Part shown: positions 13,890-47,495 of the stretch, piece by piece
How positions within the stretch are numbered: the first letter of the stretch is position 1
Layout: every line of letters begins with the position of its first letter
Assembly (NCBI GenBank): GCA_000004985.1
Contig: GG738879.1
DNA length: 64,000 nucleotides
Direction: 5' to 3' (one strand)
Source of the DNA: Naegleria gruberi
Taxonomy: Eukaryota
Notes under the pieces: model-generated
What the model was told of the DNA's origin: nothing
The model's database searches: none
The model's input: the letters and a program-made list of their open reading frames with translations, nothing else
Position numbers and translations under genes: made by a program

Positions 13890-16800
13890 CTACTTATAAG
13901 AACCACCTGAAGATGCAAGAAGACGTGTTAATCTAACATCTGATTCAAATACTTTCTCATAGACCTGTAAAGAATCCAATAATCTTTCCACTAGCTCATC
14001 AGGGGAGAGTCTGTCCACTTCTGGTTCAATAAATACAGGATTTTGAAATTGTCTCATATAAGCATCCATATCAATATTGCTATGTCTTGGTTCGACATCC
14101 TCTTCTTGATCGACTAATATCTCATCGTTTGAATCATAAACAATATCCACTGGAGTAGATGTTTGAACCTCGATTGATCTTCCTTTTCCACATTCTTCAA
14201 AAATTAAAGGTTGAGTCTGACAAGAAGTGGAACATTGTTTGGATTTCAACTTTGAAACAATTTCCAGACCTTGCGGTTTGCATTCCTTGTATTGTTTGAT
14301 TTCTTCTTTAATTTTCTCCTTCTTATATCTCCTCTCTTTTTCAATTTCAGAATGTGATTTAGCTTTGATAGTACTGATAATGTTGAAGGGATCAACTTCA
14401 CTGGAAGCTATCTTTGATTTGTTTCGTTTGTAGGATGAAGCTAATTTGTCATTTTTAGAATTTTTAAGGCTCAAGAACACTTGTTTCTTAATTTCTTCCT
14501 TTTTCTTTCTAACTTCTTCCAATAAAACTGAAGTTTCAGAATCATTTTCTATACTTAGTAAACTGGCCGAGGAAATATCAGAGCTTACTGAACTTGTTTC
14601 ATTTGATGTTATTTTACTCTTACTTCTACTTTCTCTTCCATAATCCGAACTTGTTCTCAGTGAACTAATACTTGATGTAGATTGTCTCAATGAAGGTTTG
14701 GACTTCCTTTGATTTTTCCTTTTGTCTCTTATTTGCACGTCTTTTCTCGGGTATTTCAGTTTGTTCCTCCTCTCGTACATGTTTTTTTGAAAAATATGAA
14801 ATCTTTTCAATTTCAGAAGAACCTGTCACTGAAGGAGATGATATCATTTCTATAGAGAATGAGTTATAGTTAGGGTCGATCTGTATGTTTCGTTCCTTAG
14901 GTTTAGAAAAATGGAGCTCTATTTCTTTTGCATTGTCTTTTTTGATTAGTTCATCGCTGAAAATGGCTGTTGAAGGATTGAATGATGCATGTTCATGGAT
15001 ATCTTCTATATTATCCAATGAATTTTCACTTGATGAATCAACAATAATTGAAGATTCTGAATTAGTCCCTTCAGACAATTCGGAATTGTTAATCACAACC
15101 TTATTTGATTCCGAGTTATGATATGTCTCATACTCAACTGGATTGAAATATCTTTGTTTGGATTCTAAAGTTATGACTATAGGATCCAAATTACTGTTGT
15201 CTAGAGAAGAGGACTCACTATCATTTCTTTTAAGTTGACTGGAAAATGGATGGAGAGAAGATCTGTCACTCTTAATGCTATATTCACTGTACACTACGGA
15301 AGGTGAAGAAGCAATTGTTTCTGAAAGTGTATCCTGGTGAGGAGAAGTTGGCGCTTCTGTTTTAATGTTTTCGGAAGATGAGGTTTCTTCTAAATTTACA
15401 GGGATAGGAGCCTCAACAAGAACCTCTTTTTTTTCGGGTGAGGCCTTTTCCTTTCTTTCTTTTGAAGGGAATTGAGGAAGCATTCTATTTGATATTGACT
15501 TTTCGCTTGATGATATAGTAGGTTTTGATTCAGTTGGTTCTCTTGTGTCATAAGTTGTGTCAATCGGTTTAGATGGAACCTCTTCTTTAGCTTTACGGGC
15601 ACTTGATATCAGTTGTAGGGCATTCTCAATAATTTTTCTTCTCTCAATATCTGCTTCTGTCAACCGTGGTTCAATGCTGGATATATCATTATATGTACAA
15701 TCAACATGTTTGGGTATTGGAAATGAAAAATCCCTTATTTCAGACTTCCCCTTCAAATATTCCTTATTATTTTCAACTGGTTTTGCTGGTGCTGACCAAA
15801 GAGACCACACAGAACTGTTTGTACTCTCAGATTCTTCGTCCATAAATGCATTAAGTGGACTGTCTTTCTTAATTTTGTGAAGGTTCCTTCTTCTTAGTTC
15901 CCTAGCCAACTCCTGTGCTGCTTCTTTCAGCTTTTTCTTTCTTTCGTGGTCAACTGCAAGTTTTGATCTCACTTTTTTCCCAAAATCTTTCACTCTTTTT
16001 CTACTGTCTGTGTTTTCATTTCCTTCAAGTTGTTCTTTAAGAAATTGAGGCATTTCTGGCTTCTTTTTCTTTGACTTTTCGTCTTCAGGAGGTGGAGGAG
16101 GGTTTGTGAACAATTCATGAATGTATTCATCTAGTCTCTTTAGAGCATCCTTTTTTCCAATTTTCTTTTGAATTTCCTCTTGCTTTTTTTGTTCAGCTAG
16201 CTTTTTGTCATTAACTTGCTTTTGCTTCATAAACTCTTTCACTTTTTCCTCATCATATGGTTTTTTCCTCATGTTATTATTTCGAGGAGGTCTCATTCTA
16301 AGTTTTTCCTTCTCCTTTCTTCTCTTCTCCTTCATATATTCTCTAATTTCATTTTCATCATAGAACTTTTGTCTATTCTCGTAATATGGCTTGTAGATGT
16401 ATTCTTCTACAGTAGTGAATGGTTTCTTTTTCTCTGTGCTTGAAGGTCTGCTTGATGGTTTCTTTTTCTCAGCAGTCTTTTCTGAGTTTTGAGTGGTAGG
16501 TCTTGAGGCTGATTTTGGTCTTTCTCTTACTATACTTTTTAGTTCCTGAGGAGGTGATGATGTGTTAATTACATTAGTTTGTTGATTGTTTTCTTGGTTG
16601 AGTTGGGGTTGTTCACATACTTGTTCGGTAGCTTGTGGTTCTTGAAGCATTTCTGGATTTGTTTCCTCATTACTTTCTTGAGGAGCTTGGGTATCACTTT
16701 CATAAGATCCATAAGGATCAAAATCTTCAAATTGTGAATCGTCTTCCTGTGTTTCCTCTTGGTTTTTCATTTCTGTTGGAGTGTTTCCCTCGCAATGTTG

Positions 16801-17166
16801 CTCCTCTTCTGTTGCTTGTGCTACTTCGACTATTTGTTCTTCGTAAGGATTTTCCTCATTCTGCTGTTCCTCCTCTTCATAATTTTCAAAATGCTCCTCC
16901 TCTGCATAATGTTCCTCTTCATTGGGTTGTTCTTCGTACGACTGATATGTTTCTTGAGGATGTTCCTCTTCTGTACCAGGATGATACATTTCCTCCTCAT
17001 AGGGATTATTCTCTGGATGGTCATCGTACACATCACCTCCAAAATTATGTTCATAATCATCATGATGATCATCTCCTACATCCCCTGCATAATGTTGCTC
17101 TTCCTCGTCATGATGAAAATCATTGTCATAGAAATCCTCTCCTAAATCCTCAAGTGAATCATCCAT
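13890..17166 (-). CDS. Large low-complexity protein with an acidic N-terminus, a K/R/E-rich basic middle and a Ser-rich C-terminus. It is split into two overlapping ORFs (14665..17166 and 13890..14810) by a +1 frameshift in a T7/A7 homopolymer at about 14782-14788.
   Basis: Both ORFs are on the minus strand. They overlap by 146 nt in frames offset by one and have the same composition. Deleting one A from CAAAAAAAC fuses them into an ORF of about 1120 aa. No AT-rich GT..AG intron of suitable length is present. Confidence 0.45.
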
Positions 17167-24752: not shown

Positions 24753-27700
24753 TTAATGACTAATCTTATTTATTGGTTTTACAACCCAAATCCATTTACA
24801 TACAATAGAGAAAAAACAATGACCATCAACCACGTTGAATGATGTGATGATTGATGAATCACCCAATCTTTGACTCTCGAGAACTTTTGGTGAAGTTGAA
24901 CATTCACTTCCTGACCATCCACCCACACAAGCACAGTTATTTGGTGAGAAACAACTGCCGTGTCCAGAACAAACAGATACACTTGTGGAGATAGTTCCAT
25001 AACAATCAAATTGGTTACACTCTTTTCCATAGTAGTTATTTGCACATAAACAATTATTTGGTGATAAACAACTGCCGTGTCCAGAACAAACTGATGTGTT
25101 TGTGGAGATTGTTCCATAACAATCAAATTGGCTACAGTCATTTCCGTAGTGATTATTTACACATGAACAATTATTTGGTGAGAGACAGCTACCATTCAAA
25201 CTTCCACCACATGCATTATTGTCAATCAATCCAAAACAAATTGGTGTTCCACATTCTTTACCCGTGTATTCATTTGAGCAGGTGCAATTGTTGAAAGAGG
25301 AACAATTGCCTTTGAATGGACCATTACAGGCATCACTTCCATTCAATCCAAAGCAAATAGGCTTCTCACATTCAATTCCAAACCATCCACTTGTGCATGA
25401 ACAGGTATTTACATCACTACATAATCCATTTCCAGAACAGGCAGCAGTTGAGGTTTTGTTGAAACAAAATGGAAGACAAGTTTGGAAATCATCTTGCATT
25501 TCATAACCATCTGGACATCCAATCTTTCTTACAACTCTTCCATTTCCATTACTCATATGAATTACACCAATGGCATTTGTCAAAGGTGAAACTGAAATTC
25601 CAACAATATCACCAAATGTTGCATTACTCAATAATCCATCTTCCATTGAGGTCGATCCAGATTTTCCAGTCACTAACTTTAACACATTTTCCTTCTCATC
25701 AAATCTATAAATTTCATTGTCTCTCACCAAAATAATGGTTCCAAACTTGGTACATTGTATAGTATAACTTTCAATGGATAAACCATCCAATTGTTTTCTC
25801 AACATTCCATCTGGTGTTAACTTGAAAAAGTATGAATTAATAAGCAAGTAAACATTATCATCATTTGGACATGTGGTGAAATCATTAAATTCCATAAGTG
25901 GAAAGTCAGTTGCTTTGGTAATATTTGGATAAACATAATAAGGATTGTACAAGCCATTGCCAACTATTGTTGAAACTATTCCATTAGCATCAATCTTTCT
26001 CACTCTGCTATATTCATAATCATAAATCATCATTTCTCCGCTATTATAATTCACATTAACACCATATGGAGTAAATTGAGTTTTAGTATAGTGAACATTT
26101 TCCACCAGTTGACCAATAATAGTGGAAACAGTTCTTACATCCATATCCACAATTCTCACTCTTTTACCATCGAGGAAGTATAAATTTCCATCAATGGATG
26201 AAATTCTTGCTGCTGCAACTGTAGCAAGGGTGTTTTCTTCAGAAAGTTCTTTGTTATCCCCACTTACAACAGAACTTCTGGTTGTCTTTCTTTCAACTGA
26301 ATTACCTGTTAATGATATCTCTATTAATTCATTATCGTAAACTGTGAAAATCATGCCATTGTAGTAACTCAAATAGTATGGATAGCCTATTGAGGCAGTT
26401 GAGAGATTACCATTTTGGTAATTGGTGTTTTGGTATTGACCAGCCACAGTAGAAACGACTCCATTAGAAATCTTTCGAATAACACAATTGAAAGTATCTG
26501 AAACATATAGATCTCCATTGGTAGTATCTATATCAAGACCATTGGGAAAGTAAAAACGTGCAGTCTGAATTGGACCATCTTGATATCCACTTATCGTTCC
26601 TCCAGAAAAGGTTGAAACTATTTGAGATGTGAAATTGTAAACTCTGATTCTATGATTATAAGCATCAACAAAATATAGTTGACCATCAAGTGCATTAAAT
26701 GTCAAACCTAGAGGGTAATTTAATTGAACATCCGTGCCAATACCACTTTCATAGTTATTGGAAGTTGAAGAACCTGTTCCAATAATTCTGGTTGATTTTT
26801 CTAAAGAATCAACTCTATAGATAGAGGTTCTATCTGAGAAGTAAACATTAGAATTTGAATCTATTTCAATTGACTGTGGATTTCCATTGTATAGACTATT
26901 ACCTGAACTGTCAGCTGTTATGTGAATAGTTGAAATTATTCCATTTTGTGAAATCTTTCTAATTCTGTCCAAACTTAACAAGTAAATTTCACTTGTTTTC
27001 TTATCAAATTTGATGTCAATATAGTTTGATGAGGTAATTGCTTGCTCAAACGGGACATTATCAACTCCAAAGTAATCTGGAGCAAATAAAAGTCTTGTTC
27101 CATTGGTTAAATACTTGTACATTACTCTATCACCAATGATATAGATATTGTTCTGATTATCAGCATATTCTATTTGATACTTGTTACTTCCAGAAAGACC
27201 TGTGTTAAACAGGAAAGTTGTCAATCCATCTTTAAATTTGACAACTTGTTGGTAACTTGAAACCACAAATGAATCCTCATTCAATGAATAAGCCAGGCTG
27301 TTTCCTTTGACAAATGATTGTCCATAGGTTGTTCCTGAAATAGTGTATGGATCTGGTGAACCTGCTATAATTGTTGTCCATGCTTGTTGATTTTGTAGAT
27401 CTACCTTTCTAATAACTCGATTATCAAGATCGGCAATCAATAATTGATCCAATTGTGGTAGATATTGAATTTGGTAGGGTCTTACATACACATCCTTTCC
27501 ATTTTGTGGAAGATATGTTCTTTCATATGAATTGATATCGTTTCCCAAAAGTGTTGAAACCTGATTAGAATTCATATTCAACACTCTGACACGTTGATTA
27601 TTCAGATCTGAAATGAACAACTCTTGTGTCGAGTCTTTGAATGAAAGAGAGGGAATATAGTAAAACAGAGCTTGAGTTGCATTTCCATCTCTATATCCAT

Positions 27701-28442
27701 TATTATAATTATTGCCATCTCCTGCAATTACACTCATCACTCCATTACTCAACAATTTAACAATATTATTATAGGCTGACAAGTAAATATCACCATTTGA
27801 TGGATTAATAACCAATCCATTCATATTTTGATAGTAAGCAATGGTTGAAACAGTCGAGTTGACTTGTGAAATTAATCTCACTTTTTCTCCATCAGCAAGA
27901 TAAATGTCCTTGTTGGGACCGTGGACAAATAATTGTCTTGGCCCAACGAAAGTTGAACTATTCAAACTACGATCATCATATCCACTAGTTCGGGGAATAC
28001 CAGCAATATCAAAAATCTTTCCATTCACATCAATTTTTCTAACCAAATAATTATTCGAATCTGTGAAATATAAATCACCATTACTATCATCAAGAAAGAG
28101 AGAAAAAGGAGAGTCAATCTTTGCTTTCAAAGCATCTCCATTATGATCAGTGTTATAACCTGTATTACCATAAATACCTGCTATAGTCTGAAGAGTTCCA
28201 TCTTTTCTAACCTTTCGAATAACTTCATTGGTACAAAAGTAAAATTCAGAACCATCCCTTGATGAGGCAACACATGAAACACTTCCAATATAATTACCCA
28301 AAACAGAGGTAAAATCATTATTTGTATTGGTACTATTAGTGAGAGTGGTCACTGTAGGAAGTATTGGATTCAATGCATGTGTCAGTTGACAAAATAATCC
28401 AATAACCAAAAATAAAAGAAATTGAACGGTAGATTGGTTCAT
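24753..28442 (-). CDS. Large secreted or surface protein with NHL-type beta-propeller repeats followed by tenascin-type EGF repeats, 1229 aa.
   Basis: Signal peptide. Many YxTDxxNxxIRKI-type NHL blades (YFTDSNNYLVRKID, NHRIRVYNF, CVIRKISNG). The C-terminal CxGxGxCxxxNxCxCxxGWxGxxC repeats occur six times or more. A possible 44-nt terminal intron followed by a hydrophobic exon is unresolved. Confidence 0.65.
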   Translation of the reverse strand: MNQSTVQFLLFLVIGLFCQLTHALNPILPTVTTLTNSTNTNNDFTSVLGNYIGSVSCVASSRDGSEFYFCTNEVIRKVRKDGTLQTIAGIYGNTGYNTDHNGDALKAKIDSPFSLFLDDSNGDLYFTDSNNYLVRKIDVNGKIFDIAGIPRTSGYDDRSLNSSTFVGPRQLFVHGPNKDIYLADGEKVRLISQVNSTVSTIAYYQNMNGLVINPSNGDIYLSAYNNIVKLLSNGVMSVIAGDGNNYNNGYRDGNATQALFYYIPSLSFKDSTQELFISDLNNQRVRVLNMNSNQVSTLLGNDINSYERTYLPQNGKDVYVRPYQIQYLPQLDQLLIADLDNRVIRKVDLQNQQAWTTIIAGSPDPYTISGTTYGQSFVKGNSLAYSLNEDSFVVSSYQQVVKFKDGLTTFLFNTGLSGSNKYQIEYADNQNNIYIIGDRVMYKYLTNGTRLLFAPDYFGVDNVPFEQAITSSNYIDIKFDKKTSEIYLLSLDRIRKISQNGIISTIHITADSSGNSLYNGNPQSIEIDSNSNVYFSDRTSIYRVDSLEKSTRIIGTGSSTSNNYESGIGTDVQLNYPLGLTFNALDGQLYFVDAYNHRIRVYNFTSQIVSTFSGGTISGYQDGPIQTARFYFPNGLDIDTTNGDLYVSDTFNCVIRKISNGVVSTVAGQYQNTNYQNGNLSTASIGYPYYLSYYNGMIFTVYDNELIEISLTGNSVERKTTRSSVVSGDNKELSEENTLATVAAARISSIDGNLYFLDGKRVRIVDMDVRTVSTIIGQLVENVHYTKTQFTPYGVNVNYNSGEMMIYDYEYSRVRKIDANGIVSTIVGNGLYNPYYVYPNITKATDFPLMEFNDFTTCPNDDNVYLLINSYFFKLTPDGMLRKQLDGLSIESYTIQCTKFGTIILVRDNEIYRFDEKENVLKLVTGKSGSTSMEDGLLSNATFGDIVGISVSPLTNAIGVIHMSNGNGRVVRKIGCPDGYEMQDDFQTCLPFCFNKTSTAACSGNGLCSDVNTCSCTSGWFGIECEKPICFGLNGSDACNGPFKGNCSSFNNCTCSNEYTGKECGTPICFGLIDNNACGGSLNGSCLSPNNCSCVNNHYGNDCSQFDCYGTISTNTSVCSGHGSCLSPNNCLCANNYYGKECNQFDCYGTISTSVSVCSGHGSCFSPNNCACVGGWSGSECSTSPKVLESQRLGDSSIITSFNVVDGHCFFSIVCKWIWVVKPINKISH

Positions 28443-41111: not shown

Positions 41112-41693
41112 CTAAAAGTGTAATGCTCTGTAGCCATCTTGATGTTTCTCCTCAATGAGATTGAATATTGTGGAGAGAAGGAGAGGAAGGCAGCATCCAA
41201 AACAGTCAGCACAACACATGAGAGGACTCAACACAAATTGAGTAATGATGAATGAATGAAGACTTTCGAATAGTTCCCTATTTCTTATATTACATTCGCC
41301 AGAGTATGTTAATGAAGCAAGGGTTATCAGAACTATAATTAAAACTCCCCATAATAAGAAGGAACAACAACGAAATATTATTTGACAAGGTCTATTCTCA
41401 TGTTTCTTCTCCTCACTGGAATGTGTTCGAATAGAAAAGTAGAAACGATCCACGTATATTCCAATGAGTGCCATGAATAAATTCACTGCCAATAATAAAC
41501 CAATTGAAGAAAGTGATAAAACTAATTTTGAAATTGTATTTGCTTTGCATTGTAACGAGTCAACCATTGTAATGTCTGATGTTTTCAAATAAATATAAAC
41601 TCCCCAGAGCGAAATTCCCAAAACTAAAATCATTGAAATCATCAAATCAATACTCATTAATCCAATCCCTTTCCATCCTTTAAATATTTTCAT
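41112..41693 (-). CDS. Small four-TM cysteine-rich membrane protein, paralog A. Intronless, 193 aa.
   Basis: Four predicted helices. Cys clusters sit at helix ends (RCCSF, MCCADCFGCC). The C-terminal ...EEKHQDGYRALHF is shared with the upstream paralog. Confidence 0.5.
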   Translation of the reverse strand: MKIFKGWKGIGLMSIDLMISMILVLGISLWGVYIYLKTSDITMVDSLQCKANTISKLVLSLSSIGLLLAVNLFMALIGIYVDRFYFSIRTHSSEEKKHENRPCQIIFRCCSFLLWGVLIIVLITLASLTYSGECNIRNRELFESLHSFIITQFVLSPLMCCADCFGCCLPLLLSTIFNLIEEKHQDGYRALHF

Positions 41694-41708
41694 TTTTTAT
41701 TCTAAAGT

Positions 41709-42321
41709 TCAGTGATGAAGTGCCTTGTATCCTTCGTTAGATCTTTCTTGTTCCAAATTCTTAATAAACGAACCGAAACAACATGTTGTACAACAACCAC
41801 CACAAATCAAACAAACCAAAACAAGCATCATTACAAATTGAGTTATCAAAAATGGATGTAAATCATTGTAAAATTCCACAATAGTACTTTTACAGTCTGA
41901 TTGATAATTTAGAACTGAAATGGAAATTAAAACTGAAAAGGAAGCAAATCCAGCAATGAAATTCCAACACCTCACAAATAAACTTGTTACTTTGACATTG
42001 GAATCATCACCTGATAAGACAGTATTTATCTAAGAGTGTTCCAAATATTGAACAAATGCATAAAACTGCAGAAACATAGCATAATGTATTGTAGGTCAAT
42101 AAAAGTTGAGAAATTGTTCTGCCTTGACACTTGTCAGACAGATTAGTGGCATTCATTGAAAAATTTCCATGTATTACAAGTCCCCAAGTTCCCATTCCAA
42201 TAAGAATTAAAAAAGATATGATGGAATCCAAGCTCAATATGCTAATTTCAAGTTAGCTTTCGTTGTATTTCTAGTTAAAAAACTAAACCTACCTAATTCC
42301 AAGTAATTTCAATTTTTGCAT
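41709..42321 (-). CDS. Small four-TM cysteine-rich membrane protein, paralog B. Three exons: 42321..42293, 42241..42011 and 41970..41709. About 173 aa.
   Basis: The spliced product MQKLKLLGIS|ILSLDSIISFLILIGMGTWGL...DKYCLIR|CWNFIAGFASF...ICGGCCTTCCFGSFIKNLEQERSNEGYKALHH aligns end to end with paralog A. Introns of 51 and 40 nt (GTAGGT...AATTAG and GTGATG...TGTGAG) restore the frame. The two ORF-track pieces (42007..42237 and 41709..41975) are exons 2 and 3. Confidence 0.55.
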
Positions 42322-42416: not shown

Positions 42417-45382
42417 TTAATTTTCACCAATTGGAATGAATTGTGTCATGAGAGGTGGATGTTCTGAAATAAGATTGTCAATATAGACAATTGTGGAATT
42501 GATTGGTTTGTATCGACAATGAGTATGATTTTTAGGTGACATGGCAATGTAATCAAATGTTGTGAAGGATTTAGAAGAATTATTTCTAATAATTTCATGA
42601 CTAATAACTGGATGCATATATGTCTGATTGAAAAAGTTATTGGTCGATTTGAAATTAAGATCTCCAACAAGGAACATGGTTTCAAATTGTCTATTTGCAA
42701 TTTTGCTTTCCTTCCATTCGGCCGTGAGTAAACGGCTGGCATAGAGAGCTTGCTTATTTTGTTCTTGGTGATTTCTGACAGAGAAACTGCTTGTGAAAAA
42801 GTAGAAATTGGTCATGTTAGAAGACATTAATACCTCAGGATCATTCACTCTCACATAGGCCTTTACCATTACAGCTTGTTCACTTTGATCAGAGGGAAGA
42901 AGGTAGAAGCCTCTTTCTCCCAGTGGATATGAGGAAAGAATTGAATTACCAAAGGAACCCTCTCTTAAACTTGGCCCATAATATTCATGCATATTAAGGT
43001 AGAAGCTCAAATATTCCAATAAATCGTTATTAGATGCTGAAATTCTATTCGTATCGCTGTCTTGTAATCCAATAACACTTGCTTTCAAATCTTTTAAGGT
43101 TTGTAAAACACGGTCAAAGTTATTTCTTCCATAAATATCATAACCATTGTGAACATTAAAGGTAACAATGATGAGCTTGTCTCCGTATTGGTTTGTTGGA
43201 GTTTTAAGGTACATTAGTCTATATCCTAAACTTGGAAGCACTGAAAATACGCTAATGATAATAATCACAGCCAATACACGCTTATTAATATGAGCAAATG
43301 GAGATTCTTTTTTTTCAGATTCATCCTCTCTTATCAACCATTTAACAAAACCCTTAAAAGTATATCTATTTTCCTTGCTGGTTGGCTTTTCAACGAGTGG
43401 ATCTTCCTTTCTTCCAATAACAGGTCGTCTAATGAGATTTCCCAATCCTATTCCAAATGTAGAAATTATTACAGAGCTGAAAATTAAAAGGGTGTGTGCT
43501 CTCTTATTAATAATTGTTGAAATCCAAACAACACTTGGATCTATTATGCTTGAAGGGGAGGAAAACTCCAATAAAATAACTTGAAACATGTATGTTGCAA
43601 GAGCTATGAAAGCACAAATTGCAGTTGAAAGATTTGATGTAGGATAGGCATAACCAGTATTTTTTCGGATCAATACATAAACCCATGCAGTTGGTAGAAC
43701 TATAGAAGCAATAATTGAGCTTGTTAGAATGACAATAGAAAATGAGGAATCATCTGTAGGTAAATAGGATAAAATAAAGCAAAATGTTAGCAATGATATA
43801 GCTCCAATTATAGATCTGAAAATAAGTGATACACTAGAAATCACTAGTCCAATATTTAGTGCAATCAAAATGCTCAAATTATATGGAAATCCTGGTAGAC
43901 CACTCCACCGAACAAGAGTAGTTGAAGAACTGAAAAGCCAATGAGTTAAAAATAATAGACACCCAAAGGCCAATCCTCTAGTTATTGCTAAATAGTAAAT
44001 TTTAAGGAAAGAGAAATCAAGGTGGTTGACTTCTTTCAATTGCTCATTTTCATCAATTTCATATCTTTCCTGTTCCATAGTGTCTTTTGAATCCTCTTCT
44101 TCTTGGTAAAGAATCCATCTTCTCCAAAAGAATACAATTATTTCCTCTGTTAAAGATACAATGGCGAATATAATGCAAAATATTAATGAAACTGTTGATA
44201 TTTTCCAAGTTCTTTCACCAATGAAAAGAGGATTGAGTGAACAATAGCCAAATCTCAGATTTACAATCAACACCCAACCAATAATAAATGACCAAAGTCC
44301 TCTTTCACATTGTTTCTTATGTGCATCTCTCATACAAATCACTAAATGGCCAATTAGAAATACTAATGAAACTCCAAGACAAATTACTCTATTTTGTACT
44401 TGTGGTCCATCAAATAAAGGTAAATTAGTTATTAATCCAGCACAACTGCACAAATAAAAGAAAGGCCTTCTACATATATGCAATATGGTATCAAGTTTTT
44501 CTCCAATTGTTCGTTTTTTTTCTTGTAAATATTCGAAATTATATTCTACAAAGTTATTTTCTTCGAGAACAGGTGCTGTCTTATTTGTTAAAGGTAATAA
44601 AAGTGGTGTCGATGAGCTAGTTACAATCATGTGAGTTGTATCAGTGCTCACACTATGCATTCTCATTCTTCGTCCCCTTATAACAGTATCATCCTCTGCC
44701 TCCAAAACTCTCATTAATGATTCATTTCTTCCAAAAATATGTGAAGAAGGAGAAGGATGTTGATAATAATAATCCTGATAGGATCCAGTACCACCTACTG
44801 AAATAGGATTACTCGAAGGAATAGTCAGATATGAAGATGCTTTTTTGTGAGGTAATGAATTATTGATACTTGGAGGATCTTTTTGTTCATTTTGTTGAAT
44901 AGAAGTGTTAGAAGGTTGTTCAGTTTTTGATCTTTCCAAATATGAAACGATCAGTGATTTTGCTTTTGAATAAATAGCTAATATTACAAGTATAATACAT
45001 GGAATAAAGAATGCAAAAATAAGTGGAATAATTGGTGGAAGACTGGCAAACTCAACTTTGACATAACCTTGAAAAATCAGAGAATAAAACTCTATTAAAA
45101 AACTCCAAGTTAAGAATCCTTTCAGAATATCATGTCAATATTGAATCAAATATTGAACTAAAACATACCAAAATAAATATCAGAGCTAAAGCCAAACCAA
45201 TATAAACAATTCATCAATATCCGATATTTTGTTTGCTCGCTTTCTTTCCTATTTGTGTAATAGGAAAAGTAATTATCATAAAATTCATCTTGATGATTAT
45301 CACGTGTCTTGTTATTATTATTTAAATTGTCAAGAGATGCCGATGACAAATTGTGCCTAGAGGGTGATTTAGTTTTCAACAT
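42417..45382 (-). CDS. CWH43: CWH43/PGAP2-interacting-protein-like protein: an N-terminal multi-TM Frag1/PGAP2-like region plus a C-terminal endonuclease/exonuclease/phosphatase (EEP) domain. Two exons: 45382..45169 and 45118..42417. About 971 aa.
   Basis: The EEP signature is in the C-terminus (IIVTFNVHNGYDIYGRNNFDRVLQTLKDLKASVIGLQDSD...VGDLNF...DYIAMSP). There are more than 15 hydrophobic helices upstream. The main ORF has no in-frame ATG. An upstream exon (MLKTKSPSRH...MNCLYWFGFSSDIYF|G) joins through a 50-nt GTATGT...CTGAAAG intron in phase. Confidence 0.6.
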
Positions 45383-45548: not shown

Positions 45549-47495
45549 TTATCGTTGTTGCTTCTTGTTTTGAGTTGTGGTTGTTGGCATCTTAATGGAT
45601 GTAAACTTGCCAGCAGCAGGAGCAACAGAAGGGGAAGAATTGCTTGTAGAAGAACTAATTATGTCTCTATAAGTTGGTTGTTGAGGAGTTAAAGGCTGTG
45701 AAGTGGCAGTAGTGGTTGTGGAAGCACTGTTTGAGGAAGAACTGTTATCTCTTGAAATAATCTTAAATTGTGAATCAGTCACTGGTGAATCAAGCTTACC
45801 GGAAGGAACATCTGAATTGTGGAATGAAACTTTCAAATGTTTCTTTCCTATTTTATAGCTGTTCATCTTTGAGACAGCTTCCATGGCAGAGTCAATATTA
45901 CAATATTTAACAAAGCCATATCCTTTGCTTAGGTTTGTCTTAGGATCTCTAATGACTTTGACTGATTCAATTTCACCAAATTTAGAGAAAAGTTCCATTA
46001 ATTTTGAATCATCAACATCACCAGGAAGATGGAAAATAAACAAATTAGCGGTTTCGCCTGACTTTGAATTCTTATCTTCTGGAGAGCTACTTTCATTCTT
46101 TGAACGTTTGGTGTGGGTTTGTTCTTGATTTTCATTCATAGAAGATTCATCATACATTGGTACATGGTAGTATGGGTTATAGGGTGTATAAGGATTGAAA
46201 TATGGATTATAGTATGGATTGAAATTATGCAAGAAAGGTCCTTGATTATTTTGATCATCGGATTCATTTGATTTTTCGTTTTCTAATTTATCTTTGGAGA
46301 ATCTATCGGTAGGATGTGATGATACTGGAACACCCATGTGATGAGGTACAAAGTAGGTCATGTGATATGGAACATCGGAATGATATGTCATATCTTGGGA
46401 TGTTTCATCTTGTTGATCATCACGTCTCATTGCCATTTGATTGAACATTGGATATGAATAAAGGGATGGATTCATACCATTTGGATTTGAGAAACCAGTA
46501 TGATGAGAATGGACATATGGATTTGGAACATGTGTTGGAGGTCTGATGATTTGTCTTGTTTTTAACTTTCTCTTTTGTTTTTCATGTTCTGTTTCAGCGA
46601 ATCTAACAACCAGAGGAAGAATATCCTTTGATGAATCATCATCTAATTTGGAACCATTCATTTTTTGAATAGCAGAGAGAGCATCTTTACGATTTTCAAA
46701 TTTACAAAAACCGTAACACTTGCTCCTTTGTGTGTTGATATCGATCATAATCTTCACTTTTGAAATTGGACCAAATACTTCAAAAGCTTGTTTAAGTGTC
46801 TCTTCATCATAGTGAGGTGGAATATTTCTGATGAAAAGATTAGATTGTTGATCTTTTTCCTTATTCCCTGCACTATTGGAAAGCTTACAGAGCAATCTCT
46901 TATTTCCAATAGATTTTTCATTAAGTCCTTGAATAGCATCTTGAGCTTCATTTTCATTTGAAAATCTAACAAATCCAAATCCTAATGATGAATTTTCTCT
47001 TGTTTTATCAGTCATAACGTGGCAACTGACAATCTCTCCAAAAGGTGTGAATAACTCTCTTAAATCTTCATCAGAGAAATGAGGTGGAAGATATTTAACA
47101 AAAACGTTGCAAAGATCTGAATTTTCTGAATCTAGATATTCTTCCTCATCAATGCTTTCCTCTTCTTCCTCTGAGATCCTCTTTGGAATTTCTTGTTGAA
47201 TTTTTTCCTTGGAAATAAGCCCAACAGGACGTGTTCCATTGGAAGTCACCAAGTTGTTTGTAGTAGCAGTAGTGGTAATCTTTGTTTGAGTCTCTTTTCT
47301 TTGACTACTACCAATTCCAACACCAAGATTGATCTTGATGGCATTATTGTTATGTGATTTGGCGTCTTTTTCTAATTGTAAGATTACTGGAGGTTTTTCT
47401 TTTTGAAGAAGTTCAATTGTGTTGGTTGTTTTGTTCTTCTTATCATTTTGTTCAGATCCTGTTGTTGATGACATGTTTTCAAAAGAAGACCACAT
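45549..47495 (-). CDS. RNA-binding protein with three RRM domains, 648 aa.
   Basis: RNP-1/RNP-2 motifs: NVFVKYLP...LGFGFVRF, LFIRNIP...KCYGFCKF and LFIFHLP...KGYGFVKY. Low-complexity linkers. Confidence 0.7.
   Translation of the reverse strand: MWSSFENMSSTTGSEQNDKKNKTTNTIELLQKEKPPVILQLEKDAKSHNNNAIKINLGVGIGSSQRKETQTKITTTATTNNLVTSNGTRPVGLISKEKIQQEIPKRISEEEEESIDEEEYLDSENSDLCNVFVKYLPPHFSDEDLRELFTPFGEIVSCHVMTDKTRENSSLGFGFVRFSNENEAQDAIQGLNEKSIGNKRLLCKLSNSAGNKEKDQQSNLFIRNIPPHYDEETLKQAFEVFGPISKVKIMIDINTQRSKCYGFCKFENRKDALSAIQKMNGSKLDDDSSKDILPLVVRFAETEHEKQKRKLKTRQIIRPPTHVPNPYVHSHHTGFSNPNGMNPSLYSYPMFNQMAMRRDDQQDETSQDMTYHSDVPYHMTYFVPHHMGVPVSSHPTDRFSKDKLENEKSNESDDQNNQGPFLHNFNPYYNPYFNPYTPYNPYYHVPMYDESSMNENQEQTHTKRSKNESSSPEDKNSKSGETANLFIFHLPGDVDDSKLMELFSKFGEIESVKVIRDPKTNLSKGYGFVKYCNIDSAMEAVSKMNSYKIGKKHLKVSFHNSDVPSGKLDSPVTDSQFKIISRDNSSSSNSASTTTTATSQPLTPQQPTYRDIISSSTSNSSPSVAPAAGKFTSIKMPTTTTQNKKQQR

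Follow-up and report, generated by a model that had tools for sequence, protein, structure and literature searches.

Two head-to-tail genes for small four-TM proteins

The DNA analyzed here, a stretch of 64,000 nucleotides of contig GG738879.1 (assembly GCA_000004985.1; the window in what follows), has a G+C content of ~33%, is gene-dense and carries few introns. It belongs to Naegleria gruberi: an ORF for an RRM protein within it is 100% identical to N. gruberi NAEGRDRAFT_80404. The locus of interest holds two genes, which we term A (the upstream copy) and B; their coordinates are collected in Table 1, together with those of other features of the window. A first-pass annotation, made from the letters of the window, had proposed these two genes and described their products as small, alignable proteins. 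Both genes were recovered within the same limits on the minus strand, B as one ORF of 193 aa and A as a product of 173 aa when spliced as then proposed, and the two proteins, with four hydrophobic helices each, could be aligned over their full length.

Table 1. Coordinates of the A-B locus and of other features of the window
Feature	Position	Strand	Description
Gene A	42321-41709	minus	Upstream copy of the head-to-tail pair, N. gruberi
Gene A, exon 1	42293-42321	minus	29 nt; MQKLKLLGI plus the first 2 nt of a Ser codon, preceded by the start context AAAAAATG
Gene A, intron 1	42242-42292	minus	51 nt, phase 2, GTAGGT...ATTAG; spliceosomal type
Gene A, second and last exon (our model)	41709-42241	minus	Continuous coding sequence with one extra base in the window; corrected product 186 aa
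Extra C in gene A	42018	minus	TGT-C-TTA-TCA, against TGT-TTA-TCA in a related strain; derived +1 frameshift leading to a stop at AGG TGA
40-nt segment of gene A	41971-42010	minus	Second intron of the first-pass annotation (GTGATG...GTGAG); most likely coding (…GDDSNVKVTSLFV…), cytosolic TM2-TM3 loop
A-B spacer	41694-41708	minus	15 nt between the stop codon of A and the start codon of B; identical in the strain of the ENA contig
Gene B	41112-41693	minus	Intronless single ORF of 193 aa; four-TM paralog with all family-conserved residues
PGAP2IP/CWH43-like gene	42417-44939	minus	840-aa ORF, similarity extending to ~45304; Pfam PF23226, C-terminal nuclease-like; second 6-TM domain
RRM-protein ORF	45549-47495		
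Overlapping ORFs	13890-14810 and 14665-17166	minus	Two long ORFs in different frames, 146-nt overlap, beside an A7 run
ORF with NHL repeats	24753-28442	minus	1229 aa; NHL repeats and many teneurin-type EGF domains (PF25021, PF25024, PF07974)

The PGAP2IP/CWH43-like gene and the RRM gene are collinear with their counterparts in N. lovaniensis. In tblastx, similarity to the N. lovaniensis PGAP2IP-like ortholog runs upstream of the 840-aa ORF, so that the N. gruberi gene would have further 5′ exons. Beside the same two genes, N. lovaniensis carries a single gene of the family described below (XP_044544354, here P0003), in the opposite orientation; the far flank of that locus is not syntenic. By this arrangement, P0003 is the syntenic ortholog of A.

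The A-rich start context of A is also found in front of B, of P0003, of the Willaertia homolog P0008 and of a homolog on the metagenome contig L004. With so short a spacer, either the pair is co-transcribed, or the termination and polyadenylation of A, like the initiation of B, must overlap neighboring coding sequence. A fused A-B gene with eight TM helices was considered and rejected, since there is no GT donor near the stop codon of A. Both genes seem to be unannotated, because neither B nor A (in six alternative models) has an exact match in a collection of 15 billion proteins; an exact look-up of the neighboring PGAP2IP-like ORF in the protein collection likewise gave no match. No further copies of the family were detected by six-frame hmmsearch in the window or in loci L002-L006, and default tblastn of A and B against related loci returned no match.

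Two other regions of the window deserve mention. The overlapping ORFs of Table 1, the downstream part of which is a Lys/Arg/Ser-rich low-complexity sequence, could be explained by genes that overlap, by an intron or by some other disruption of the frame. The 1229-aa ORF has, as predicted from its domains, an animal-like adhesion-receptor architecture in an amoeboflagellate.

An uncharacterized protein family of Heterolobosea

With B alone as query, a word-indexed homology search gave no match. An exhaustive HMMER search was performed with a profile built from B and the last exon of A (exon-3 fragment), and gave 17 matches (E-values of 1.7e-17 to 1.8e-11 for P0002-P0006). All matches with a named source were from Naegleria, Willaertia or Acrasis, and the informative ones came exclusively from N. 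gruberi (XP_002674039, NAEGRDRAFT_70728), N. lovaniensis (XP_044544354 and XP_044547227), N. fowleri (XP_044559041 and XP_044556565), Willaertia magna (ABK040_007560), Acrasis kona (AKO1_014965) and a few metagenome contigs; profile E-values of the proteins named here were 1e-17 to 6e-4. The members are four-TM proteins of about 165-235 aa (163-233 aa for the informative matches, some of the gene models being truncated), and they match A and B in length, in the four helices, in the invariant loop cysteines and in intron positions. When compared with an HMM of the family from which A had been left out, the A protein scored 122-140 bits, depending on the gene model. All homologs are annotated as hypothetical except one named "protein kinase dapk". 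The latter (P0017, L008 3001-3671), a 192-aa four-TM member from Acrasis kona, carries this name in NCBI and UniRef and lacks a kinase domain, and is evidently mis-annotated.

The alignment of the family revealed a set of conserved motifs. In the N-terminal half these are WG..IY at the end of TM1 and Cys-x-A-x-T-I at the entrance to TM2, followed by a variable, charged cytosolic loop. The C-terminal half contains LI[AST] in TM3, Y-x-x-x-Cys with an invariant Cys in outer loop 2, F-[LI]-I-T-Q-[FY]-V in TM4, and a cluster of cysteines. The residue C113 of A, which corresponds to C134 of B, is invariant in the alignment.

At E≤1 neither A nor B matched any Pfam entry, and the 17 members gave no consistent match to any family; the Pfam profiles of MARVEL, MS4A/CD20 and claudin/PMP22 matched none of them at the same threshold. 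A sequence-profile search of the PDB was empty. The structure of B predicted with AlphaFold from a 17-sequence alignment was a confident four-helix bundle (pLDDT 84, pTM 0.74), for which Foldseek gave no meaningful match in the PDB, the resemblance to known folds being that of a generic four-helix bundle only. Known four-TM proteins differ from the family in sequence: identity to MS4A/CD20-FcεRIβ, sarcospan and MARVEL/synaptophysin was 4-11%, with no Pfam match, and none of these has the motifs WG..IY, C.A.TI..L, Y..xC or F[LI]ITQ[FY]V. Searches of the literature with the locus tags, or with Naegleria and tetraspanin, found nothing relevant. A and B appear to be members of an unnamed heterolobosean family of four-TM, Cys-rich proteins that has no Pfam entry.

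During alignment with MAFFT, the exon-2 fragment of A was placed on the second half of B. In this misalignment, the first half of A (42013-42240, loop 1 and TM2: NLSDKCQGRTISQLLL) came to lie on the second half (41712-41969, NYQSDCKS…LITQFVM). The four-TM protein may have arisen by internal duplication of a two-TM unit, giving a 2+2 TM repeat.

Intron 1 of gene A is conserved and a second ancestral intron is missing

If intron 1 of A is retained, translation reaches a stop after 10 codons. The first-pass annotation had placed this intron at 42292/42242, behind a 29-nt first exon, and had pointed to intron positions and synteny in relatives as a check; the intron is needed for the ORF, and the comparison supports it independently, since its position and phase are conserved in homologs. 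Exon maps of the homologs were derived from their genomic loci, the model of L004 being read by hand. A first intron of phase 2 was found in the same alignment column as that of A in five homologs: N. lovaniensis P0003 and P0002, N. fowleri P0019, Willaertia P0008 and the metagenomic L004. It interrupts the codon that aligns to the split Ser codon of A (GIS|IL in A, SIS|IT in P0003). Between the window and a 99%-identical environmental strain (contig L001), the intron shows one substitution and a 2-nt indel, which is the pattern to be expected of DNA that does not code. We regard intron 1 as a real and ancient spliceosomal intron.

All five homologs have a second intron (i2) of phase 1, which follows the conserved WG and lies exactly 62 nt downstream of the first (i1). 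In A the same 62 nt are uninterrupted and i2 is missing; B has neither i1 nor i2, and no indel is seen at either site. Because five homologs carry both introns, the difference between A and B is best read as loss. Thus, of the two possibilities raised in the first-pass annotation, intron loss or intron gain, the former is favored and the latter is not. The differing intron content that it reported holds as well, but as a contrast of probably one intron in A to none in B, from an ancestral two; the second intron then claimed for A is probably a frameshift artefact, as discussed below. We propose that the ancestral gene had two short introns near its 5′ end, i1 (phase 2), some 10-25 codons from the start, and i2 (phase 1), behind the Trp-Gly of TM1, and that A kept i1 and lost i2 precisely, whereas B lost both precisely. 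Such precise loss would be explained most simply by recombination with reverse-transcribed mRNA, after a tandem duplication of the DNA.

The N. lovaniensis gene P0002, which represents a paralog lineage, carries a third intron (L005 6503-6649) of 147 nt and phase 0 in the part that encodes the cytosolic TM2-TM3 loop. As N. fowleri P0019, N. lovaniensis P0003, L004 and Willaertia do not have this intron, it may be a lineage-specific gain.

A 40-nt segment proposed as a second intron is most likely coding

The second in-frame stop of A lies at 42009-42007. It is bypassed if the 40 nt from 42010 to 41971, which have GT..AG ends, are removed; this restores the frame in the window sequence and yields a product of 173 aa. 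The first-pass annotation had taken 42010/41971 as a second intron. This assignment is not supported, since the segment is coding in a 99%-identical strain and in orthologs, its splice sites are of a kind absent from the family, and an extra base lies at 42018.

The contig L001 (ENA ERZ929261), a single metagenome contig of 845 nt that is ~99% identical to the locus, does not have the C at 42018, and its ORF is uninterrupted. The public gene model for it (P0001) reads through the 40 nt as …DKYCL-SGDDSNVKVTSLFV-RCWNF…. In the read-through ORF the two strains differ by four substitutions, each of which is synonymous; two of the four lie within the 40-nt segment (GAT>GAC and GTA>GTT). With 21% of random changes being synonymous, this corresponds to P ~0.002 for all four, and to P ~0.04 for the two in the segment alone. 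The syntenic ortholog P0003 reads DMFCLSNEEKESNTLYSLVQ at this place, and L004 reads DVYCLSDEEKERSTMYNLSR, in both cases from continuous coding DNA. From CLS to the LI[AST] motif of TM3 there are 27 residues alike in P0003, L004 and the read-through form of A, and when the outgroups are read in the same frame as the strain without the C, they give C-L-S-[ND]-E-E. Since P0003 and L004 are continuous here with the same 27-residue spacing, the state without the C is the ancestral one.

The family HMM built without A points in the same direction. The corrected 186-aa A protein scored 139.6 bits, compared with 122.5 bits for the 173-aa model. When the segment was replaced by random 14-mers the score fell to 129.8±3.7 bits, with none of 300 replicates reaching the real score, and when it was shuffled the score was 134.0±2.4 bits, with 8 of 300 replicates reaching it. 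Furthermore, among 14 verified introns of the family (a small sample, from this gene family only), donors were GTA or GTT and acceptors TAG, CAG or AAG; a GTG donor and a GAG acceptor, as in the 40-nt segment, each occurred in 0 of 14.

Restoration of the frame by a GT..AG segment carries no weight here, because it is expected by chance after a 1-nt insertion: A contains 22 frame-restoring GT..AG pairs, and when single nucleotides were inserted at random into five further ORFs of the window, 70-93% of the insertions could be rescued by removing a GT..AG segment of 25-60 nt. The shortness of the segment does not speak against an intron, as genuine introns of 38-40 nt occur in L004 (JGI metagenome 3300002220; 245-284 and 347-384) and in Acrasis kona L008. 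The loop intron of P0002 aligns within about one codon of the donor proposed for the 40-nt segment, in a loop whose alignment is uncertain, and falls between, rather than across, homologous coding residues. From these comparisons, the segment 42010-41971 is most likely coding sequence for the TM2-TM3 loop and not an intron.

The public metagenome gene calls on L001 and L004 read TGA as Trp, which produces a false extension (…HHWTLE) and a false N-terminus that runs through the intron (MKWWWM…). The odd ends of P0001 and P0005 result from this reading of TGA alone, and models of this kind mislead when taken as evidence of gene structure. After a 1-nt indel in this AT-rich genome, a GT..AG pair that restores the frame can nearly always be found, so that a frame-repairing intron inferred from sequence alone needs comparative or transcript evidence.

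The extra C at position 42018

We propose that a single inserted C throws the TM2-TM3 loop of A out of frame in the window, and that intact A, as in the 99%-identical environmental strain, would have one intron and encode 186 aa. The inserted base would be either a true frameshift allele, which would make A a pseudogene or truncated allele of very young age, or an error of base calling or assembly, and the two appear about equally likely. A frameshift allele would truncate A after TM2, at 87 aa. Naegleria strains are reported to be heterozygous or polyploid (PMC9928731), so an intact second allele of A is also possible. The first-pass annotation had named one finding that would speak against its reading, namely that the upstream copy is a pseudogene; this may hold for the reference allele, on account of the C at 42018. 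A real frameshift would mean that the laboratory reference strain carries A in a form only recently turned into a pseudogene or truncated allele.

Two other explanations would keep A functional in the presence of a real C. One is that the 40 nt are indeed spliced out, so that the 173-aa protein with a shortened cytosolic loop is made and the segment is a newborn, strain-polymorphic intron created from coding sequence. Its length of 3n+1 restores the frame exactly, the donor lies immediately before the in-frame stop at a protosplice-like CAG|GT site and near the aligned position of the real P0002 intron, relatives do have introns of 38-40 nt, and the 173-aa product still reaches 122.5 bits against the family HMM. 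The splice sites, however, are of the type not seen among the 14 family introns, 21 other GT..AG pairs would restore the frame equally well, most random insertions are rescuable in this manner, and both the sister strain and the orthologs conserve the segment as coding sequence; we consider intronization quite unlikely. Were it true, two strains would obtain an intact protein from one gene by two routes, by read-through (186 aa) or by a new intron (173 aa), and the birth of an intron would have been caught while still polymorphic, which would be of interest to specialists in intron evolution. The other explanation is a programmed +1 ribosomal frameshift at CUU-A (UGU CUU AUC AGG UGA), in which the Leu tRNA slips from CUU to UUA to give C-L-S-G-D-D. 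The sequence CUU-AGG-C of yeast Ty1 is a +1 frameshift site, and slippage on CUU-A in A would yield exactly the read-through protein of the other strain, with a stop codon two codons further on. Yet the A-site codon AUC is neither a stop nor obviously rare, and neither the sister strain nor the orthologs require a frameshift, so that the signal would be brand new; this explanation is highly improbable. A coding loop disrupted by one inserted base is the reading that we retain.

Age of the duplication and origin of the intronless gene B

With A spliced as in the first-pass annotation, A and B align over their full length with 30% identity and a pairwise E-value of 5e-30; overall, their identity is 28-30%. 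On this alignment we consider the two genes to be true tandem paralogs. As their identity is just 28-30%, the duplication is judged to be old, and the recent duplication suggested earlier is contradicted both by this value and by the position of B, which forms a long branch that is unplaced in the family tree. A clusters with P0003 and L004 (60% bootstrap, plus synteny). A C-terminal tail of the type GYxx[LM][HQ]H is common to B and the A/P0003/L004 clade only. The simplest account is that the gene was duplicated in tandem in the gruberi lineage, that B diverged fast and that introns were lost precisely.

Alternatively, B could be a processed retro-copy of an A-like mRNA that was inserted just downstream of A, instead of a tandem DNA duplicate, as the first-pass annotation had also considered. 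Both ancestral introns are missing from B without an indel, as a retro-copy would have it, and heterolobosean genomes contain reverse transcriptase genes (an RVT_1 gene adjoins the Acrasis homolog). But B lies head-to-tail, 15 nt past the stop codon of A and with a start context of its own, and no A-run follows its stop codon, nor is a flanking repeat apparent there. In addition, A itself lost one intron precisely, which indicates that in-place loss operates in the family. Given the 15-nt tandem spacing and the lack of a poly(A) remnant after the stop, a retro-copy is an unlikely origin for B, and a DNA duplication followed by intron loss is preferred.

Predicted features of the proteins and their possible role

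A and B contain 10-13 cysteines each, several of which cluster at the end of helix 4, and both proteins end in GY[KR]ALH. Both the N-terminus and the TM2-TM3 loop contain basic residues, and N-x-S/T sequons occur in loop 1 of A, P0005, P0006 and P0016; these features suggest that the N- and C-termini are cytosolic. The invariant Cys in each outer loop would form an inter-loop disulfide, as judged from the motifs.

Tetraspanins are palmitoylated at juxtamembrane cysteines, and the tails of LAMP and CD63 carry tyrosine-based sorting signals. By analogy, we propose that the flexible cluster of cysteines where TM4 meets the cytosol may be S-palmitoylated, and that the C-terminal G-Y-x-x-hydrophobic motif may act as a sorting signal of the tyrosine-based type that binds adaptors. 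The Willaertia homolog lacks the Cys cluster, and other subfamilies have YSRV and YIRV in place of G-Y-x-x-hydrophobic. The proteins could then be tetraspanin/CD63-like membrane organizers of the endolysosomal or plasma membrane. The proposed organizer role would be shared with tetraspanins (PF00335), CD63 included, whose profile nevertheless has no match in A or B or in any of the 17 family members. Tetraspanins also have a large second extracellular loop with a CCG motif, in contrast to the TM3-TM4 loop of A and B, which is ~20 aa long, has one invariant Cys and lacks CCG. The earlier remark that the family is not obviously tetraspanin is thus upheld by the lack of a Pfam match and of CCG and by a second outer loop of just ~20 aa. 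It is tentatively suggested, with low confidence, that A and B are small palmitoylated scaffolds that are trafficked through the endolysosomal system.

Significance for the family

Taken together, the account given here, of old tandem paralogs, intron loss and a frameshifted coding loop, is in our view probably correct. The pair is largely ordinary apart from being an addition to an uncharacterized, lineage-specific family: two apparently unannotated N. gruberi genes join a group of small membrane proteins for which there is no Pfam entry and no function has been described. Ancient intron positions that Naegleria and Willaertia have in common, and that individual paralogs have lost precisely, make the family a clean, small example of differential intron loss.
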